Below are positions 3,292 through 19,003 of a DNA stretch of 20,641 nucleotides, in pieces. Made by a program: the position numbers and the translations under genes. The DNA lies in IMG/VR virus record IMGVR_UViG_2537562190_000023; one strand, 5' to 3'. The stretch is from a virus (taxonomy: Duplodnaviria; Heunggongvirae; Uroviricota; Caudoviricetes). Below the pieces are notes generated by a model that had not been told where the DNA came from, ran no database searches, and saw only the letters and a list, made by a program, of their open reading frames with translations. Position 1 is the stretch's first letter; each line of letters begins with the position of its first letter.

Positions 3292-3653
3292 AAATAAAGG
3301 GATAACGATGATAGTTTGAGAAAAACAGAAATAACACTTTTGTGGCAAAGCATGGTGCCGGGTGCCTCCCGGTGAATTCAGTACCAGCACCTGAATCCGC
3401 GATTATCCCATATACCTGGTTGCTGATTGCCCCTCCGCACAGGGGGATTCACCATGCAGTAGTATTTTTAATAAACAGTAAACAAAAAAATCAAGCATTA
3501 TGCAGGCTGTTTCTTTTTATCACCGGCCACAGCAATACCACAATGCCGCAGACCAGCCCCCATCCGCCAGCACCGACATGATTCTGCTGGTGAAATCCAC
3601 CATCACCACCAGAAACAGCAGGAGTGCAGCCACAGCCAGGCGCAGTTTTACCG

Positions 3654-7334: not shown

Positions 7335-7490
7335 TTACTCCTCAGGTTCGTAAGCTGTGAAGACAGCGACCTCCGTCTGGCCGGTTCGGATTCGTACCTC
7401 GCAGAGGTCTTTCCTCGTTACCAGTGCCGTCACTATGACGGTTAAACAGATGACGATCAGGGCGATTAACATCGCCTTTTGCTGCTTCAT
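7335..7490 (-). CDS. hok: Hok/Gef-family type I toxin, 51 aa; an in-frame upstream extension to 7547 forms a mok-like leader ORF
   Basis: MKQQKAMLIALIVICLTVIVTALVTRKDLCEVRIRTGQTEVAVFTAYEPEE is a canonical Hok/RelF-type sequence (single TM helix, conserved Cys, acidic C-terminus). The 70-codon ORF 7335-7547 starts at ATG 7547. Confidence 0.85.
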   Translation of the reverse strand: MKQQKAMLIALIVICLTVIVTALVTRKDLCEVRIRTGQTEVAVFTAYEPEE

Positions 7491-7534
7491 AGCCTGCTTC
7501 TCCTTGACCTTTCGGTCCGTAAGAGGCAATCTAT

Positions 7535-7590
7535 ATGTGACGAGCATATAGGGGCCTCACTTCGATTTATAGTCGGGTGGGGCTTTTATC
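7535..7590 (+). ncRNA. Predicted Sok-like antisense RNA overlapping the mok translation-initiation region
   Basis: Plus-strand TTGACC at 7504-7509 could serve as a -35. A possible terminator hairpin (CCUCAC/GUGGGG with one G-U pair, 7556-7582) is followed by CUUUUAUC. The region is antisense to the mok start at 7547. Boundaries are approximate. Confidence 0.3.
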
Positions 7591-7792
7591 TATCTGCCGT
7601 TGGTGTTCATGCCCGAGGCAGATAGCCTCAAGCACCCGCAGCAATTCTACTTAACTCTGCCGTTACAGCAAGCCGTTTTCGTCCGATATGGGAATTCCCA
7701 TATCGGAATGAATTCAGTTCACCTGGCGAGGCTTAGCGTACAATTTTTTCCGTTTTGTGAGCTGCCCCTACATGCCGCTGGCGCGGCATCCG

Positions 7793-13454: not shown

Positions 13455-13694
13455 ATGCATAAACGAGAACCCGTCATCATCGCGCCAGACTATACCGATG
13501 ATGAACTTTATGAGTGGATGCGCCAGAAAATTAATGCAGCGCAGGATCTGAAATGGGCCAATGAAGCCAGGGCTAAGCAGGCTGAAAAATCTGTCCGCTC
13601 TGGAGCAGGATATCACCAATTTGGAAAAAGCAGCGGCATTAAGCATTGCCAGAATGATTACATACCCGCGTTAATAGCTAACCAACGAGGATAA
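13455..13694 (+). CDS. Hypothetical early protein, 79 aa as read; possible frameshift near 13585
   Basis: Strong SD GAGGAA 5 nt upstream of the ATG. The N-terminal 45 residues look protein-like. After an A5 run the +1 frame encodes a more helical-looking tail (LSALEQDITNLEKAAALSIARMITYPR). Confidence 0.5.
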   Translation: MHKREPVIIAPDYTDDELYEWMRQKINAAQDLKWANEARAKQAEKSVRSGAGYHQFGKSSGIKHCQNDYIPALIANQRG

Positions 13695-13724
13695 GGTTGG
13701 TAATTAAGGAGTTCTCTACGGGTC

Positions 13725-13762
13725 AGGTGGAGTGCGTGCGCCGGACACGGGTGAGCATCCGG
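13725..13762 (+). terminator. Candidate plus-strand intrinsic terminator closing the first early-gene block
   Basis: Bulged hairpin CGTGCGCCGGA / TCCGGCACG (13725-13756) followed by TTCTTT. Confidence 0.4.
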
Positions 13763-13809
13763 CACGTTCTTTAAAAATCTGGATAGTCCCAACTTATTTA
13801 AACGGTTAA

Positions 13810-14154
13810 TTATCTTGAGTTCATCCAGAACTTATTATTGCAAGCGGGGCAAAAAGTACGAAAATGAGCATCAAAGCGCATTATTTCCATTGGTTGCAGT
13901 ACAGATATTACCTTTTTTCCAAAACATTGTGGGCAAAGATGCACTGTTATCTCGGTATCGCCTATAAATTGCTTCTTGGAATACACAAGAGTTCCAGAAT
14001 CAAGCTTGTTAAGTTTGTAACCTTCCGCCTGTTGCTGAAAGTCTTCTATCTCTGCAATTTTTGCTTTGAGAGATGCGGCTTCTTCCTGATAAGAGCGCAC
14101 CATCTCAATGAGCGATACGCATTCAAACTGAACAGACGTAAGTTTTGAAAGCAT
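13810..14154 (-). CDS. Antisense-oriented zinc-ribbon protein, 114 aa (coiled-coil N-terminus, CPQC-x22-CPAC)
   Basis: Protein-like composition with a predicted coiled coil (EEAASLKAKIAEIEDFQQQAEGY) and a C4 zinc ribbon. Lies on the strand opposite to the surrounding early operon, in an AT-rich stretch. No obvious SD before the ATG at 14154. Confidence 0.55.
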   Translation of the reverse strand: MLSKLTSVQFECVSLIEMVRSYQEEAASLKAKIAEIEDFQQQAEGYKLNKLDSGTLVYSKKQFIGDTEITVHLCPQCFGKKVISVLQPMEIMRFDAHFRTFCPACNNKFWMNSR

Positions 14155-14280
14155 ATCGCTGACAGCGGAATTTATCTCAGTTTGAGTTTTGCATTCAGAA
14201 TACCCTTTGCCATTACCGCAGTTTCTTTGATTGCCGACATTGCTGCTGAGAACTCAACTATCACGTTACATACTCTTCTC

Positions 14281-14324
14281 GTTGTTGGGGATATCCAGAT
14301 TATACAAATTTCTTGTTGTTGGGG
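14281..14324 (-). promoter_or_regulatory. Candidate promoter for the zinc-ribbon gene, flanked by a 10-bp direct repeat
   Basis: Minus-strand perfect -10 TATAAT (plus 14299-14304). Exact direct repeats GTTGTTGGGG at 14281-14290 and 14315-14324, one on each side of the -10. Confidence 0.35.
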
Positions 14325-14806
14325 AATAACAGGAACCACCTCGCCTGACGTGGTTAAAAGCAGGCACACAACGCGAAAGCGTACGGCGAGGTAGCTGGTT
14401 CATAGATAGCCTGTCGTTAAATTTTCGTCGACCGTGCGCTTCCGGTTGTGGCAGTCCGCGAAATGGCGCGGCGGTAAGTATGGCTGGGGTTTCCTCCATT
14501 GCTCCAGAAAATGCACCGGGTTGTCAGGTTGACCATACGCTTAAGTGACAACCCCGCTACAACGCCCTCTGTTATCAATTTTCTGGTGACATTTGGCGGT
14601 ATCAGTTTTACTCCGTGACTGCTCTGCCGCCCTTTTTAAAGTGAATTTTGTGATGCGGTGAATGCGGCTAAGCGCACGCGGAACAGTTAAAACCAAAAAC
14701 AGTGTTATGGGTGGATTCTCTGTATCCGGCGTTAATTGTTAACTGGTTAACGTCACCTGGAGGCACCAGGCACTGCATCACAAAATTCATTGTTGAGGAC
14801 GCGATA

Positions 14807-14995
14807 ATGGAAACGTTATTACCAAACGTTAATACGTCTGAAGGTTGTTTTGATATTGGAGTTCTGCTCAGTAACCGGGAGTTTACTGAAGATGCCATTA
14901 AGATGAGAAAATATGAACCTTATCTTCTTAATGATAATTCCATACTTTCCAGAATTGCCCTTCTTGAACTTGGTATTATCGGAGAACAGCAGTGA
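14807..14995 (+). CDS. Hypothetical protein, 62 aa
   Basis: ATG at 14807 with SD GAGGA 7 nt upstream. The six-frame ORF starts at an upstream GTG. Confidence 0.4.
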   Translation: METLLPNVNTSEGCFDIGVLLSNREFTEDAIKMRKYEPYLLNDNSILSRIALLELGIIGEQQ

Positions 14996-15180
14996 CTTCA
15001 GCGTTTGCACTGATAATGACCGTTTTTCTTATAACGGGTGAGCCGCAGAATGTGATTACCGGAATTTATTACAGTAAGTCATCCTGCATTCAGGTAAGGG
15101 ACGAACAAAAAATCCCCGGTGAATGCCTCCCGTTAAAAAAAGTATCGCTGTACCTGAATAACGAAACACCGGCTGGATAA
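14992..15180 (+). CDS. Hypothetical small protein with hydrophobic N-terminus, 62 aa
   Basis: GTG start overlapping the previous stop (GTGA), GGAG 7 nt upstream. N-terminal hydrophobic segment ALIMTVFLITG. Confidence 0.35.
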   Translation: MTSAFALIMTVFLITGEPQNVITGIYYSKSSCIQVRDEQKIPGECLPLKKVSLYLNNETPAG

Positions 15181-15272
15181 CCCGCCAGCCATATTAACGC
15201 CATACCAACGGATTAAAAATGCCAGCAATGGCAGGAATTTGTTCATCCTTAAAATGGTTATGAGGTTTATCA

Positions 15273-16874
15273 ATGAACGCTGATAAAGAAGAAATTGCAC
15301 TATATTACGAAGCCAAAAATGACAAAGTCAGAAAACGCCTTGGGATTAAAGGTGGTTTTTACTGGCGCACAGCAAAAAAATTATCGGTTGCAATATCACG
15401 TGGTGTTGCTGCAATGGACGATGCCGGATTTGACGAAGAGGATTTTAAAAAACCCATCCGCGTCCATTTACCCGTTGTGAATGACCTTCCACCGGAAGGT
15501 GTGTTTGATACTGAATTCTGCAACCGATACGAAAAAGGCGGAGAAGATGGTATCACAATGATACTTATCGCGCCCTCTGTTCCGGACAAACCAGCCAGTA
15601 CTGACAATACCAACGTCAACGGCGAAGACATGGCTAAGATTGAGGAGAATATGCTTCTTCCGGTTTCAGGTCAGATTCTGCCTGTTCGCTGGCTGGCGCA
15701 ACACAACAGCGAAAAACCGCTCACGCACGTTTCACTGGACAAACTGCGCGCATTACATAACGCACAGGATGAAAAACTTCCCGCCGTTACCGCGCTGGCC
15801 ATCTCAAATAAAGCAGTGCAACTCGAACCGCTGGAGCTTCGGGATTTGTACAAACTGGTGCGAGACACTGACAAAGTTTTCCCCGCCCCCGTAAATTCGG
15901 ACCTGGGACTGATGACCTCTTTTATCGAAGCATACCTGGGCGCTGACTACACCGATCGCGGTCTGCTTACAAAAGAGTGGATGAAAGGAAATCGTGTTTC
16001 ACGCATCAGCCGCACGCCATCCGGCGCTAACGCTGGCGGCGGCATTCTTACCGATCGCGGCGAAGGTTTTGTCCACGATGATGCGTCAGTGGCGCGTGAC
16101 GTAGCCACTGGCGTACTGGCCCGTTCAATGGACGTGGATATTTATAACCTTCATCCCGCGCACGCTAAACGCATTGAGGAAATTATCGCTGAAAATAAAC
16201 CGCCATTTTCTGTGTTTTTCAGCAAATTCATCACCATGCCGGGCCACAAGGATTACTCCCGCGCCATCGTGGTTGCGTCCGTGAAAGAAGCACCAATTGG
16301 TATAGAGGCTACTCCCCACCGTGTCACCGAATACCTGAATAAGGTGCTGACTGAAACCGATCATGCCACCCCTGATCCGGAAATCGTGGATATTGCCTGT
16401 GGTCGCTCCTCTGCCCCGATGCCGCAGCGTGTAACAAAAGAAGGAAAACAGGATGATGAAGAAAAACCGCAGCCATCTGGCGCAATGGCAGATGAACAGG
16501 CAACGACTGAAGCAGTGGAACCGGATACAACTGAACATAATCAGGACACGCAGTCGATGGATGCTCAGCCACAGATAAATTCTGTTGATGCGAAATATCA
16601 GAAACTGCGTGCAGAACTCCATGAAGCCAAGAAAAACATTCCACCCAAAAATCCTGTCGATGCAGATAAATTACTGGCTGCTTCTCGAGGAGAATTTGTT
16701 GAAGGGATTAGCGACCCGAATGATCCAAAATGGGTGAAGGGGATCCAGAGTCGCGATGATGATGACCAGAATCAGGATAAAGCGGAACAAAACAGCCCAA
16801 ATGCGTTACAAAACGAGCCAAAAACAAAACAACCTGAACCGCCCCGGGTTTCCTGGAGAGTGTTTTATCTGTGA
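15273..16874 (+). pseudogene. RecE-like protein, N-terminal fragment truncated by IS629 insertion (last 13 codons and stop are IS-derived)
   Basis: ATG at 15273 with SD GAGG. Long stretches resemble the N-terminal region of Rac RecE as recalled (for example [80 protein letters not shown]). The frame enters the IS at 16835 and stops at 16872-16874. Confidence 0.8.
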
Positions 16875-16876
16875 AC

Positions 16877-17764
16877 TCAGGCTGCCAGATCATCGTTTCC
16901 GATGGAAGCATAATAAGCTTTTTCTGCTTCTGCCGGGGGAGTATGGCCCAGCCTTTCCAGCAATCGTCGATTGTTATACCAGTCCACCCACGTGAGTGTG
17001 GCCAGTTCCACTTCTGCACGGTTTTTCCAGCTCTTACGGTGTATTACCTCCGCTTTGTAAAGACCATTGATGCTCTCCGCCATCGCGTTGTCATACGAGT
17101 CGCCAGTACTCCCTGTTGATGCCAGTAATCCGGCTTCCTTAAGCCGCTGCGTGTAGGCCAGCGATACATACTGAGAACCTTTATCACTGTGATGGATTGT
17201 GCCGGACGGCCGACGGGCCCACAACGCCTGCTCCAGTGCATCCAGCACGAATGTTGTTTCCATGGATGATGAGACCTGCCATCCCACGATGTATCCGGCG
17301 AACACATCAATGATGAACGCCACATAAACGAAGCCCTGCCATGTGCTTACCCAGGTAAAATCAGCCACCCACAACTGGTCTGGACGTTCTGCCACGAACT
17401 GACGGTTTACGCGGTCGCATGCGGCAACGGCTTTCCGGCTGACGGTAGTGCGGACCTTTTTACCCCGGAGAACACCGGCAAGTCCCATAACCGCCATGAG
17501 ACGTGCCACAGTGCATCTGGCCACTCTGATACCTTCCCGTAACAACTGACGCCAGACTTTACGCACACCGTATACCTTGTGATTTTCATCGTATACGCGC
17601 TGTATCTCTTTCTTCAGCCAGTCATCGCGCTGCGCACGGGCACTGCGTTTATCCGGATAATGTCGCTGTTGCTGACAGTGGTAATACGTTGACGGGGCAA
17701 TATGCAGTTCGCTGCATACCGGTCCGACCCCGTACTGCTCACGCAGCTTATCCAGCAGTGGCAT
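16877..17764 (-). CDS. IS629 transposase OrfB (DDE catalytic domain)
   Basis: 295 aa beginning [29 protein letters not shown] and ending ASIGNDDLAA, matching IS629 OrfB as recalled. ATG overlaps the orfA stop (TAATG). Confidence 0.9.
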   Translation of the reverse strand: MPLLDKLREQYGVGPVCSELHIAPSTYYHCQQQRHYPDKRSARAQRDDWLKKEIQRVYDENHKVYGVRKVWRQLLREGIRVARCTVARLMAVMGLAGVLRGKKVRTTVSRKAVAACDRVNRQFVAERPDQLWVADFTWVSTWQGFVYVAFIIDVFAGYIVGWQVSSSMETTFVLDALEQALWARRPSGTIHHSDKGSQYVSLAYTQRLKEAGLLASTGSTGDSYDNAMAESINGLYKAEVIHRKSWKNRAEVELATLTWVDWYNNRRLLERLGHTPPAEAEKAYYASIGNDDLAA

Positions 17765-18090
17765 TATTTTTTCCAGAGGCGGTCGAACTCCGCCTTCGCA
17801 AAATAAGCGGAAGCCTGGCGAAGGATATCGTTACTGCGGCGCAGTTCACGATTTTCACGTTCCAGCTCTTTCAGACGCTGACGTTCAGCGGTGGTGAGTC
17901 CACCATCACCACTCCCGGTATCCCGCTCATGCTGGCGAACCCAGACACGCAGAGTCTCCGGCGTACAGCCAATCTTTGGGGCAATGGAACAAATTGCCGC
18001 CCACTGTGAGTCATATTCATCCTGACTTTCCAGAACCATACGAATCGCCCGCTGACGGACTTCGGGGGAAAAACGAGTATTTTTAGTCAT
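17764..18090 (-). CDS. IS629 transposase OrfA (HTH / leucine-zipper part)
   Basis: 108 aa [59 protein letters not shown]..., matching IS629 OrfA as recalled. An A6 run sits at the orfA/orfB junction, where IS3-family -1 frameshifting occurs. Confidence 0.9.
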
Positions 18091-18157
18091 CCTGTTTACC
18101 TCTTTCTCAGGGAGTTTAGTCTCCAGGATTTCCGGGGCGGTTCAACCTGAACCAGTA

Positions 18158-19003
18158 GTGCAACAAGAACCAGAAAAAGTTTGCACCACATGTGGTCAGA
18201 CCGATGGCGGCAACTGCCCTGATTGTGGAGCGGTAATGGGTGACGCAACCTACCAAGAGACATTCAACGAAGAAAGCCAGGATGAAGCCCGGAAAAAAAA
18301 TCCGGAGGAAATGGAAAATGCCGTGCTCCCGAATAAGCAATGCACCGAAGGCGATCAACATGCCAATGGCAATAATGAAACAGGCGAGACAGCAAATCCC
18401 TTAATTACGGTGAACGGTCATCACGTTATCACATCCACCAGCAGGACGTGTGACCATCTAATGATCGACCTTAAAACCATGGGAAAAAATCCTGATGCCC
18501 CGATTATCTCAATAGGTGCAATATTTTTCGATCCGCAAACCGGAGATATGGGACCGGAATTTAGTAAGACTATCGATCTGGAAACTGCTGGCGGAGTCAT
18601 TGATCGGGACACCATTAAACGGTGGCTTAAGCAATCACGCGAAGCGCAATCTGCCATTATGACCGATGAAATCCCGTTAGATGATGCACTGTTACAATTG
18701 CGGGAATTTATCGACGAAAACTCCGGTGAATTTTTTGTTCAGGTCTGGGGAAATGGAGCCAACTTCGACAACACGATTTTGCGCCGTTCATACGAACGGC
18801 AGGGGATCCCCTGCCCGTGGCGTTACTACAACGATCGCGATGTACGCACAATCGTTGAGCTGGGGAAAGCCATAGACTTCGATGTCAGAACTGCTATCCC
18901 ATTCGAAGGTGAGCGCCATAATGCACTTGATGACGCCCGTTATCAGGCAAAATACGTTTCAGCTATCTGGAAAAAACTGATCCCGAGTCAGGCTGATTTT
19001 TAA
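18158..19003 (+). CDS. C-terminal fragment of the IS-split RecE-like gene: DnaQ-like 3'-5' exonuclease domain
   Basis: In frame with 15273-16834 once the IS and one ACC copy are removed (…[17 protein letters not shown]…). Exonuclease motifs [13 protein letters not shown] and [13 protein letters not shown] are present. First motif reads MIDLKTMG. The ORF begins with GTG at 18158; an internal ATG at 18461 precedes the domain. Confidence 0.7.

Follow-up and report, generated by a model that had tools for sequence, protein, structure and literature searches.

Does the short palindrome upstream of dicB in this prophage act as DNA, as an operator or a promoter element would, or as RNA, and if as RNA, within which molecule? 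The window, that is, the whole stretch of 20,641 nucleotides that we analysed, holds at 14518-14526 (GGGTTGTCA) and 14546-14554 (TGACAACCC) two segments that are perfect complements over 9 bp, with a 19-nt spacer. The letters thus bear out the initial annotation, which had described such a repeat as enclosing a TTGACC hexamer (we find it at 14529-14534, within the spacer) and as lying in a GC-richer stretch (GC content 0.52 over 14300-14600, against 0.38-0.46 in the flanks), and which had proposed either a regulator-binding site or an RNA structure. As bare sequence, the repeat is barely beyond what chance provides and makes weak evidence alone. When perfect 9-bp inverted repeats with spacers of 3-40 nt were counted in dinucleotide-shuffled versions of the window, each shuffled window held 3.2 +/- 2.0 of them, and the probability that at least one falls within 14370-14700 was 0.046. 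It is covariation in relatives, rather than the sequence itself, that leads us to regard the repeat as real.

The surroundings identify the locus. Positions 14200-14900 are 100% identical to a prophage of Escherichia coli O103:H2 12009 and its relatives, in which a DicA-like repressor gene, ydfA, a frameshifted ydfC, a minus-strand hypothetical gene, dicB, a DUF1482 gene and genes for an exonuclease, an excisionase and an integrase follow one another. Judged by this identity, the window bears the dicBF operon of a Qin-like prophage, and the stretch previously called ORF-free is the ydfC-dicF-dicB intercistronic part of that operon. That description remains apt in that no conserved ORF crosses the stretch, but it overlooked the gene of the small RNA (sRNA) DicF, which lies inside. 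The immediate neighbours downstream of the inverted repeat are the following:

14580-14632, plus strand: DicF sRNA, 53 nt with its terminator hairpin (K-12 annotation by alignment; Rfam RF00039).
14807-14995, plus strand: dicB, encoding a cell division inhibition protein of 62 aa (RefSeq annotation of the 100%-identical 12009 region).

DicF, among the oldest known bacterial sRNAs, blocks cell division. Its 52-nt covariance model in Rfam, RF00039, scores 77 bits at 14581-14632 (gathering threshold 48), and a U run at 14633-14637 follows the terminator hairpin. The inverted repeat ends 26 nt upstream of DicF, outside the RF00039 match, and is thus not part of mature DicF. The Qin sequence of K-12 is identical over the repeat.

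Elsewhere the window departs from its relatives. A minus-strand gene of 114 aa (13810-14154, phrog_1244, unknown function) lies between ydfC and the RNA domain described below. K-12 Qin lacks both the gene and its flanking sequence, with homology to K-12 restarting at ~14356; positions 13700-14355 resemble a moron-like insertion in the ydfC-domain interval that runs against the direction of the dicBF transcript. A pair of 16-nt direct repeats, TTCT(C/T)GTTGTTGGGGA, is found at 14276-91 and 14310-25, near the presumed promoter side of the 114-aa gene. Downstream of dicB, an ALIL frameshifting pseudoknot (17693-17809, minus strand, 120 bits), two minus-strand ORFs (16877-17764 and 17764-18090) and a displacement of xis and int by 1313 bp relative to strain 12009 together point to an IS3-family element of IS629-like size at ~16875-18157. 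This insertion splits a recE-like exonuclease gene into 15273-16874 and 18158-19003.

As for the molecule that contains the repeat, DicF of K-12 comes from a polycistronic transcript, and an internal promoter was undetected (PMC10448788). Both terminated and read-through dicBF transcripts are present in K-12; a 190-nt species has an RNase III-dependent 5' end, cut at 813/814, and the 53-nt form is RNase E-dependent (PMC10448788; processing is also treated in PMC9438474, which describes a 72-nt DicF species with an RNase III-made end). The experimental data on the 190-nt species are those of K-12 Qin. When 190 nt are counted upstream from 14632, to which the 3' end of DicF maps, and the alignments are followed, the K-12 cut at 813/814 corresponds to 2745/2746 of L002 and to 14438/14439 of the window. 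The inverted repeat is inside this span from the RNase III end to the terminator and, on these alignments, is placed within the known 190-nt DicF precursor. Cleavage by RNase E sets the 5' end of the 53-nt form at 14579/14580, within CAAU|UUUC, a site that matches the R-N|W-U-U preference of this enzyme. The precursor itself has reportedly been seen on gels since 1990, in the work of Faubladier et al.

The minimum free energy (MFE) fold of 14444-14633 contains a three-arm domain that includes the inverted repeat (z = -3.09), and in the same structure the DicF terminator folds independently of the domain. The repeat is thereby predicted to be the lower stem of the third hairpin in a compact RNA domain of ~120 nt, 14445-14563, which makes up the 5' two-thirds of the 190-nt precursor. 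Its elements are as follows:

14445-14452, plus strand: 5' strand of the closing helix, GUUGUGGC, pairing with 14556-14563 (MFE fold, covariation).
14454-14472, plus strand: hairpin A, CCGCG/CGCGG with loop AAAUGG, nearly invariant (fold, alignment, RNAalifold).
14473-14517, plus strand: hairpin B, with a conserved 3-bp base, a hypervariable stem at ~14484-14507 and a pyrimidine-rich loop.
14478-14483, plus strand: candidate pseudoknot strand GUAUGG, whose partner is CCAUAC at 14533-14538 in the loop of hairpin C.
14518-14554, plus strand: hairpin C, the reported inverted repeat (fold, covariation, RNAalifold).
14556-14563, plus strand: 3' strand of the closing helix, GCUACAAC (MFE fold, covariation).

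Hairpin C comprises a lower stem of 9 bp (14518-26/14546-54), an upper stem of 3 bp, GGU/GCY (14527-29/14539-41), a 4-nt bulge on the 3' side (14542-45) and a nearly invariant apical loop of 9 nt, UGACCAUAC (14530-38). The GGU/GCY extension was added by RNAalifold, and its C/U variation still pairs with G. Two other likenesses were considered and dropped. A riboswitch-like switch between the domain and the DicF terminator was rejected, as both coexist in the MFE fold and, by eye, no conserved alternative pairing was seen; a resemblance of the loop region to helix III/loop C of 5S rRNA, also noticed by eye, was abandoned since Rfam gave no 5S match.

Whether these helices are maintained could not be judged from the first 115 DicF loci collected from IMG/VR, which are too alike to test pairing: the block 14412-14690 is at least 97% conserved among them, except for the hypervariable 14485-14514, and hairpin C is invariant. 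Divergent relatives came from a distant blastn search and from a loop-motif scan, the latter adding 120 viral loci, and an alignment (A3) was made of 42 diverged representatives from lambdoid phages, P1 and P7. The named structure is paired in 89.1% of the cells of A3, as against 32-56% with slid partners. Both sides have changed in 18 pairs, compared with 8.0 +/- 1.8 in shuffled alignments, and 0/500 shuffles reach 18. Pairing holds in 97.9% of the cells of hairpin C, where compensatory double changes have occurred in six of the nine pairs, with variant arms such as GAGCUACCA/UGGUAGCUC, GGAUCACCA/UGGUGAUCC and GGGUUACCA/UGGUAACCC; P1 supplies a change from U-A to C-G, and RNAalifold recovers the helix unprompted. 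The upper six pairs of hairpin C are kept in all unique sequences but one, the exception being an uncompensated loop-proximal mismatch. A scan for rarer stem variants yielded only 6 loci. The 8-bp closing helix varies in the same manner among relatives (U-A/U-G/C-G, G-U/G-C/U-A and C-G/U-G/U-A), and in the base of hairpin B, GGU/ACC (14473-75 with 14515-17), U-A becomes C-G or U-G.

Arms that covary around an almost invariant loop are the mark of an RNA helix rather than of a protein-binding DNA palindrome, and on this comparative evidence the inverted repeat acts as RNA, not as DNA. Of the two options initially put forward, the RNA structure is the one that the comparison with the 42 diverged relatives upholds. 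The regulator-binding site loses ground, since pairing is conserved and half-site sequences are not. A perfect palindrome around a near-consensus -35 hexamer, in a non-coding stretch, would suit an operator that controls a promoter for the downstream genes. Arms that change and stay complementary are the opposite of what a conserved half-site would show, and no promoter-like site emerged from a scan of 13600-15300. The hint of a promoter in TTGACC finds no sigma-70-like site to go with it, nor a -10 element 16-18 nt beyond, and in K-12 the RNA 5' end upstream of the hairpin depends on RNase III, without a detected internal promoter (PMC10448788). We regard this explanation as very improbable. 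The repeat was also tried as an intrinsic terminator and set aside: its loop is 19 nt long, its stem is followed by CGCUACAACG, and no terminator coincided with it in our scan.

A further reading would attribute the conservation to a protein-coding gene on the minus strand and make the repeat incidental. 'Phage proteins' are indeed annotated over the domain (2H10 gp36, F1055_0036 and ApPE4 gp07), and the one of 2H10 matches phrog_3651. However, the reading frame shifts from one close relative to the next through 1-4 nt indels in hairpin B, the GC-richness of the stretch is enough to leave several frames open, and the substitutions are compensatory for RNA pairing. In the window, the 53-aa minus-strand ORF at 14417-14578 changes frame between relatives. 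We find this reading even harder to credit than the operator. In the phage records, the minus-strand CDSs annotated as 'phage protein' or hypothetical lie directly over the domain, at L185 2545-2739, L186 2284-2856 and L187 2498-2704; as their frame is not conserved among relatives, they are probably over-annotations of GC-rich structured RNA.

In addition to these helices, the loop of hairpin C and the segment 14478-14483 are complementary. The CCAUAC/GUAUGG pairing is intact in 100% of the cells of A3, with U-A replaced by C-G in the P1 lineage and by U-G elsewhere, and a few uncompensated changes occur in the larger set; we consider it a candidate pseudoknot only. Hairpin B behaves differently from the rest of the domain. 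Its upper part is replaced wholesale among otherwise near-identical prophages, and 14485-14514 is hypervariable even where prophages are ~99% identical, with the stem kept. Among unique DicF loci, only ~7% share the version of hairpin B present in the window. The loops, rich in pyrimidines (UUCCUCC, UUAUUCCUU), resemble anti-Shine-Dalgarno seeds. In the K-12 type, the 3' side of hairpin B, GUUGAGGAC, is the same 9-mer as the dicB ribosome-binding region at 14791-14799.

Two long-range pairings flank the domain and the DicF-dicB spacer:

14433-14441, plus strand: 5' arm of a long-range stalk, CGUGCGCUU, perfect complement of 14670-14678; the RNase III cut maps here.
14642-14660, plus strand: 5' arm of a 19-bp long-range stem, 95% complementary to 14771-14789.
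14670-14678, plus strand: 3' arm of the long-range stalk, AAGCGCACG, forming in the fold of 14400-14720.
14771-14789, plus strand: 3' arm of the 19-bp stem, abutting the upstream side of the dicB ribosome-binding site.

The stalk recalls the RNase III stalks of rRNA operons and of the lambda N leader, since here, too, long-range arms enclose a structured RNA and one of them holds the mapped cut. It differs from them in being short (9 bp plus possible extensions), in its weak or mixed covariation and in being crossed by the 19-bp stem, which makes the two helices alternatives, or else a pseudoknot. The 19-bp stem encloses a structured DicF-dicB spacer, with a sub-threshold STnc100-like match at 14644-14784 (34.5 bits, E = 7e-6), and is a likely RNase III substrate. 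By arithmetic from the length given in PMC9438474, the 72-nt DicF species would end at ~14651, inside the 5' arm of this stem. Phages of the 2H10 type have an analogous stem of ~20 bp after their terminator.

Other structured RNAs were noted along the way. The window itself carries a full-score STnc100 sRNA match (3317-3483, minus strand, 101.6 bits), in the orientation of the prophage's other early operon, and a sok antitoxin RNA match (7488-7637, minus strand, 103.9 bits), which indicates a toxin-antitoxin locus of the hok/sok type in the prophage. The P1 ban leader has a weak STnc100-like match (L184 3842-3961). C4 antisense RNA and isrK matches lie 1-2.5 kb from the domain in 2H10-type loci and one Qin-type locus (L185 38-226, minus strand; L214 1171-1359, plus strand), which suggests that several structured regulatory RNAs cluster in such early regions.

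We propose that the domain serves primarily as a scaffold for folding and processing, forming a structured 5' body for the DicF precursor, and give this reading a probability of about 0.6. RNase III would cut the dicBF transcript at 14438/14439, within the flanking stalk, so that the domain becomes the 5' body of the precursor, and RNase E would then cut 16 nt past the closing helix (14579/14580), freeing the 53-nt DicF. Hairpin C would be an architectural helix that holds the domain folded, and the folded domain would determine which single-stranded windows the two RNases can cut. The evidence itself establishes that the domain is base-paired, conserved, modular and located within the precursor; we infer from this arrangement an effect on processing and stability, and the domain would probably set the long-to-short ratio of DicF as well. 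There are precedents in sRNAs whose processing is guided by stem-loops (e.g. MicL, cited in PMC9438474): as in those, an upstream structure and the terminator hairpin bracket a U-rich RNase E site. Compared with boundary hairpins of the MicL type, however, the domain is large, its loops are invariant and it is kept across different sRNA modules, which is more than such a role needs.

The distant blastn search detected the domain alone (~14445-14571), at ~80% identity, in Stx2c phages, 2H10, Salmonella phage F1055 and P1/P7. A covariance model of the domain, R1, was built and used for copy counts. It locates a single copy in the window and a single one in each of 99 phage loci. Of 5426 complete E. 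coli genomes, 4417 (81%) carry the domain, the median number of copies being 2 and the highest 8. No annotated feature lies beneath it among the RefSeq matches listed. In Rfam 15, no family matched 14439-14566 at E <= 10, and none matched the homologous domains of P1, 2H10, F1055 and L257 at E <= 1. A linker and then a terminator hairpin with a U run, both variable, come 3' of the domain. One of these modules is DicF; at least a dozen others occupy the same position, and none of the non-DicF modules tested reaches the gathering score of DicF in Rfam. The domain is better conserved across phages than DicF itself. A 17-mer from DicF, tried as a probe of genome contigs, was discarded, as nearly all of its 61 matches were due to chance and came from unrelated phyla. 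In Actinobacillus phage vB_Apl-pPE4 (L187), the module downstream of the domain (linker, terminator and flank) occurs as a tandem duplication at ~2620-2860; the early region of this phage resembles that of an E. coli lambdoid of the Rac/Qin type (DicA, YdaT, Kil, exonuclease VIII), which is unexpected for its stated host.

In some relatives the domain is followed by almost no sRNA seed. In P1, a 7-nt linker leads from the domain straight to a strong terminator, and in two rare lineages (L236 and L257) the domain stands on an extended stalk without an sRNA module. The domain can thus exist without an sRNA to process. Furthermore, a near-invariant 19-nt loop and an invariant hairpin A and junctions are not obviously needed in a scaffold whose seed and terminator are replaced; that they persist despite the swapped modules hints that the domain has a function of its own, through a specific partner or a tertiary fold. 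The domain might, for instance, be a functional RNA in itself, either a protein-binding or decoy RNA or a regulator with the loop of hairpin B as its seed, which RNase III excises and to which DicF-like modules are merely attached. Its covarying stems and invariant loops and junctions would suit such a role, as would the CU-rich, anti-Shine-Dalgarno-like loops of the hypervariable hairpin B, the seedless L236 and L257 loci and a frequency of up to eight copies per E. coli genome. On the other hand, no partner or target was identified, and a stable domain-only species is unreported in the DicF papers surveyed. This explanation is compatible with the scaffold, and we consider it rather unlikely as the main role.

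The genomic position of the domain, as a rule where an early operon begins, brings transcription into play. In 2H10, the Stx2c phages and ApPE4, the domain comes directly after a repressor gene of the cI or DicA type and leads the early-left operon. In P1, its closing helix begins ~26 nt after the start site of the C1-controlled P1ban promoter, and the element precedes tRNA genes and ban. A strong intrinsic terminator occurs within 10-50 nt of the domain in nearly all lineages, with operon genes beyond it, and no N-like protein is encoded beside the domain in 2H10, the one genome checked. These features would fit a cis-acting element, whose nascent RNA modifies RNA polymerase to read through DicF-type and later terminators and lets dicB/kil, the recombination genes, xis and int be expressed, as a functional analogue of put or nut. 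A boxA-like sequence might contribute: the 5' flank of the domain reads CGCUCUUUU in L257, UGCUCUC in 2H10 and UGCGCUU here, which presumably resembles the boxA consensus. The motif lies 3-5 nt upstream of the closing helix, as part of a lambda nut site might; unlike nut, the domain contains no small boxB hairpin. The boxA-like segment also doubles as an arm of the RNase III stalk, and in Qin-type prophages the domain sits ~800 nt from the promoter, neither of which favours a cis element. The coexistence of terminated and read-through dicBF transcripts in K-12 (PMC10448788) agrees with it.

The closest functional parallel for such an element is provided by putL and putR of HK022, nascent RNAs that fold near the start of early operons and act with no N protein, with terminators downstream (PMC9378689). 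However, the whole HK022 genome gave no match to R1 at E <= 10, and put elements occur as two copies, downstream of PL and PR, without homology of sequence or structure to the domain, which is found in a single copy per phage region without a PR-side partner. The put RNAs consist of two stem-loops in ~70 nt (PMC9378689), as opposed to three hairpins in ~120 nt. As the primary role, cis-acting read-through is in our view slightly less probable still than an independent RNA function.

Both roles are compatible with the processing scaffold that we favour, and the domain may do more than serve as one. It is tempting to speculate on a broader scheme, which we put forward tentatively and hold to be distinctly less than an even bet: the domain would define a new family of phage structured RNAs, excised by RNase III as a ~120-nt unit that has its own molecular partner, be it RNA polymerase, Nus factors or some other protein or RNA, and that stands first in early operons in lambdoid and P1-like phages. 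There it would govern read-through of terminators or act in trans, and it would provide the chassis for swapped sRNA seed-and-terminator modules, including that of DicF.

Parts of this picture were available before. The transcript is known: the 190-nt DicF precursor of the K-12 Qin dicBF operon is the same RNA, with the hairpin between its RNase III end and its RNase E site. The papers surveyed on that species (including PMC10448788, Ragunathan et al. 2023) treat its 137-nt 5' part only as precursor sequence, with no structure, covariation or distribution stated for it; the hairpin may have been drawn earlier, by Faubladier et al. in 1990 or by Faubladier & Bouche in 1994. Similarity to P1 had also been annotated, as a 'dicF-like region' (NC_005856, 68791-68892) downstream of the C1-controlled P1ban promoter. 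This region overlaps the same domain and its terminator; it covers only the 3' half of the domain, with no structure stated, and P1 lacks the DicF seed. To judge from the sources surveyed, the folded domain is apparently undescribed, as are its distribution, the covariation of its helices and its independence from DicF.

The 5' two-thirds of a long-known precursor, treated so far as filler, are thus a compact domain whose helices covary. A domain that only guides processing would explain how DicF levels are set; one with its own partner would represent a new phage regulatory RNA in the best-studied bacterium. Loci that join the same 5' domain to different seeds would also be natural chimeras in which the evolution of phage sRNAs may be followed.
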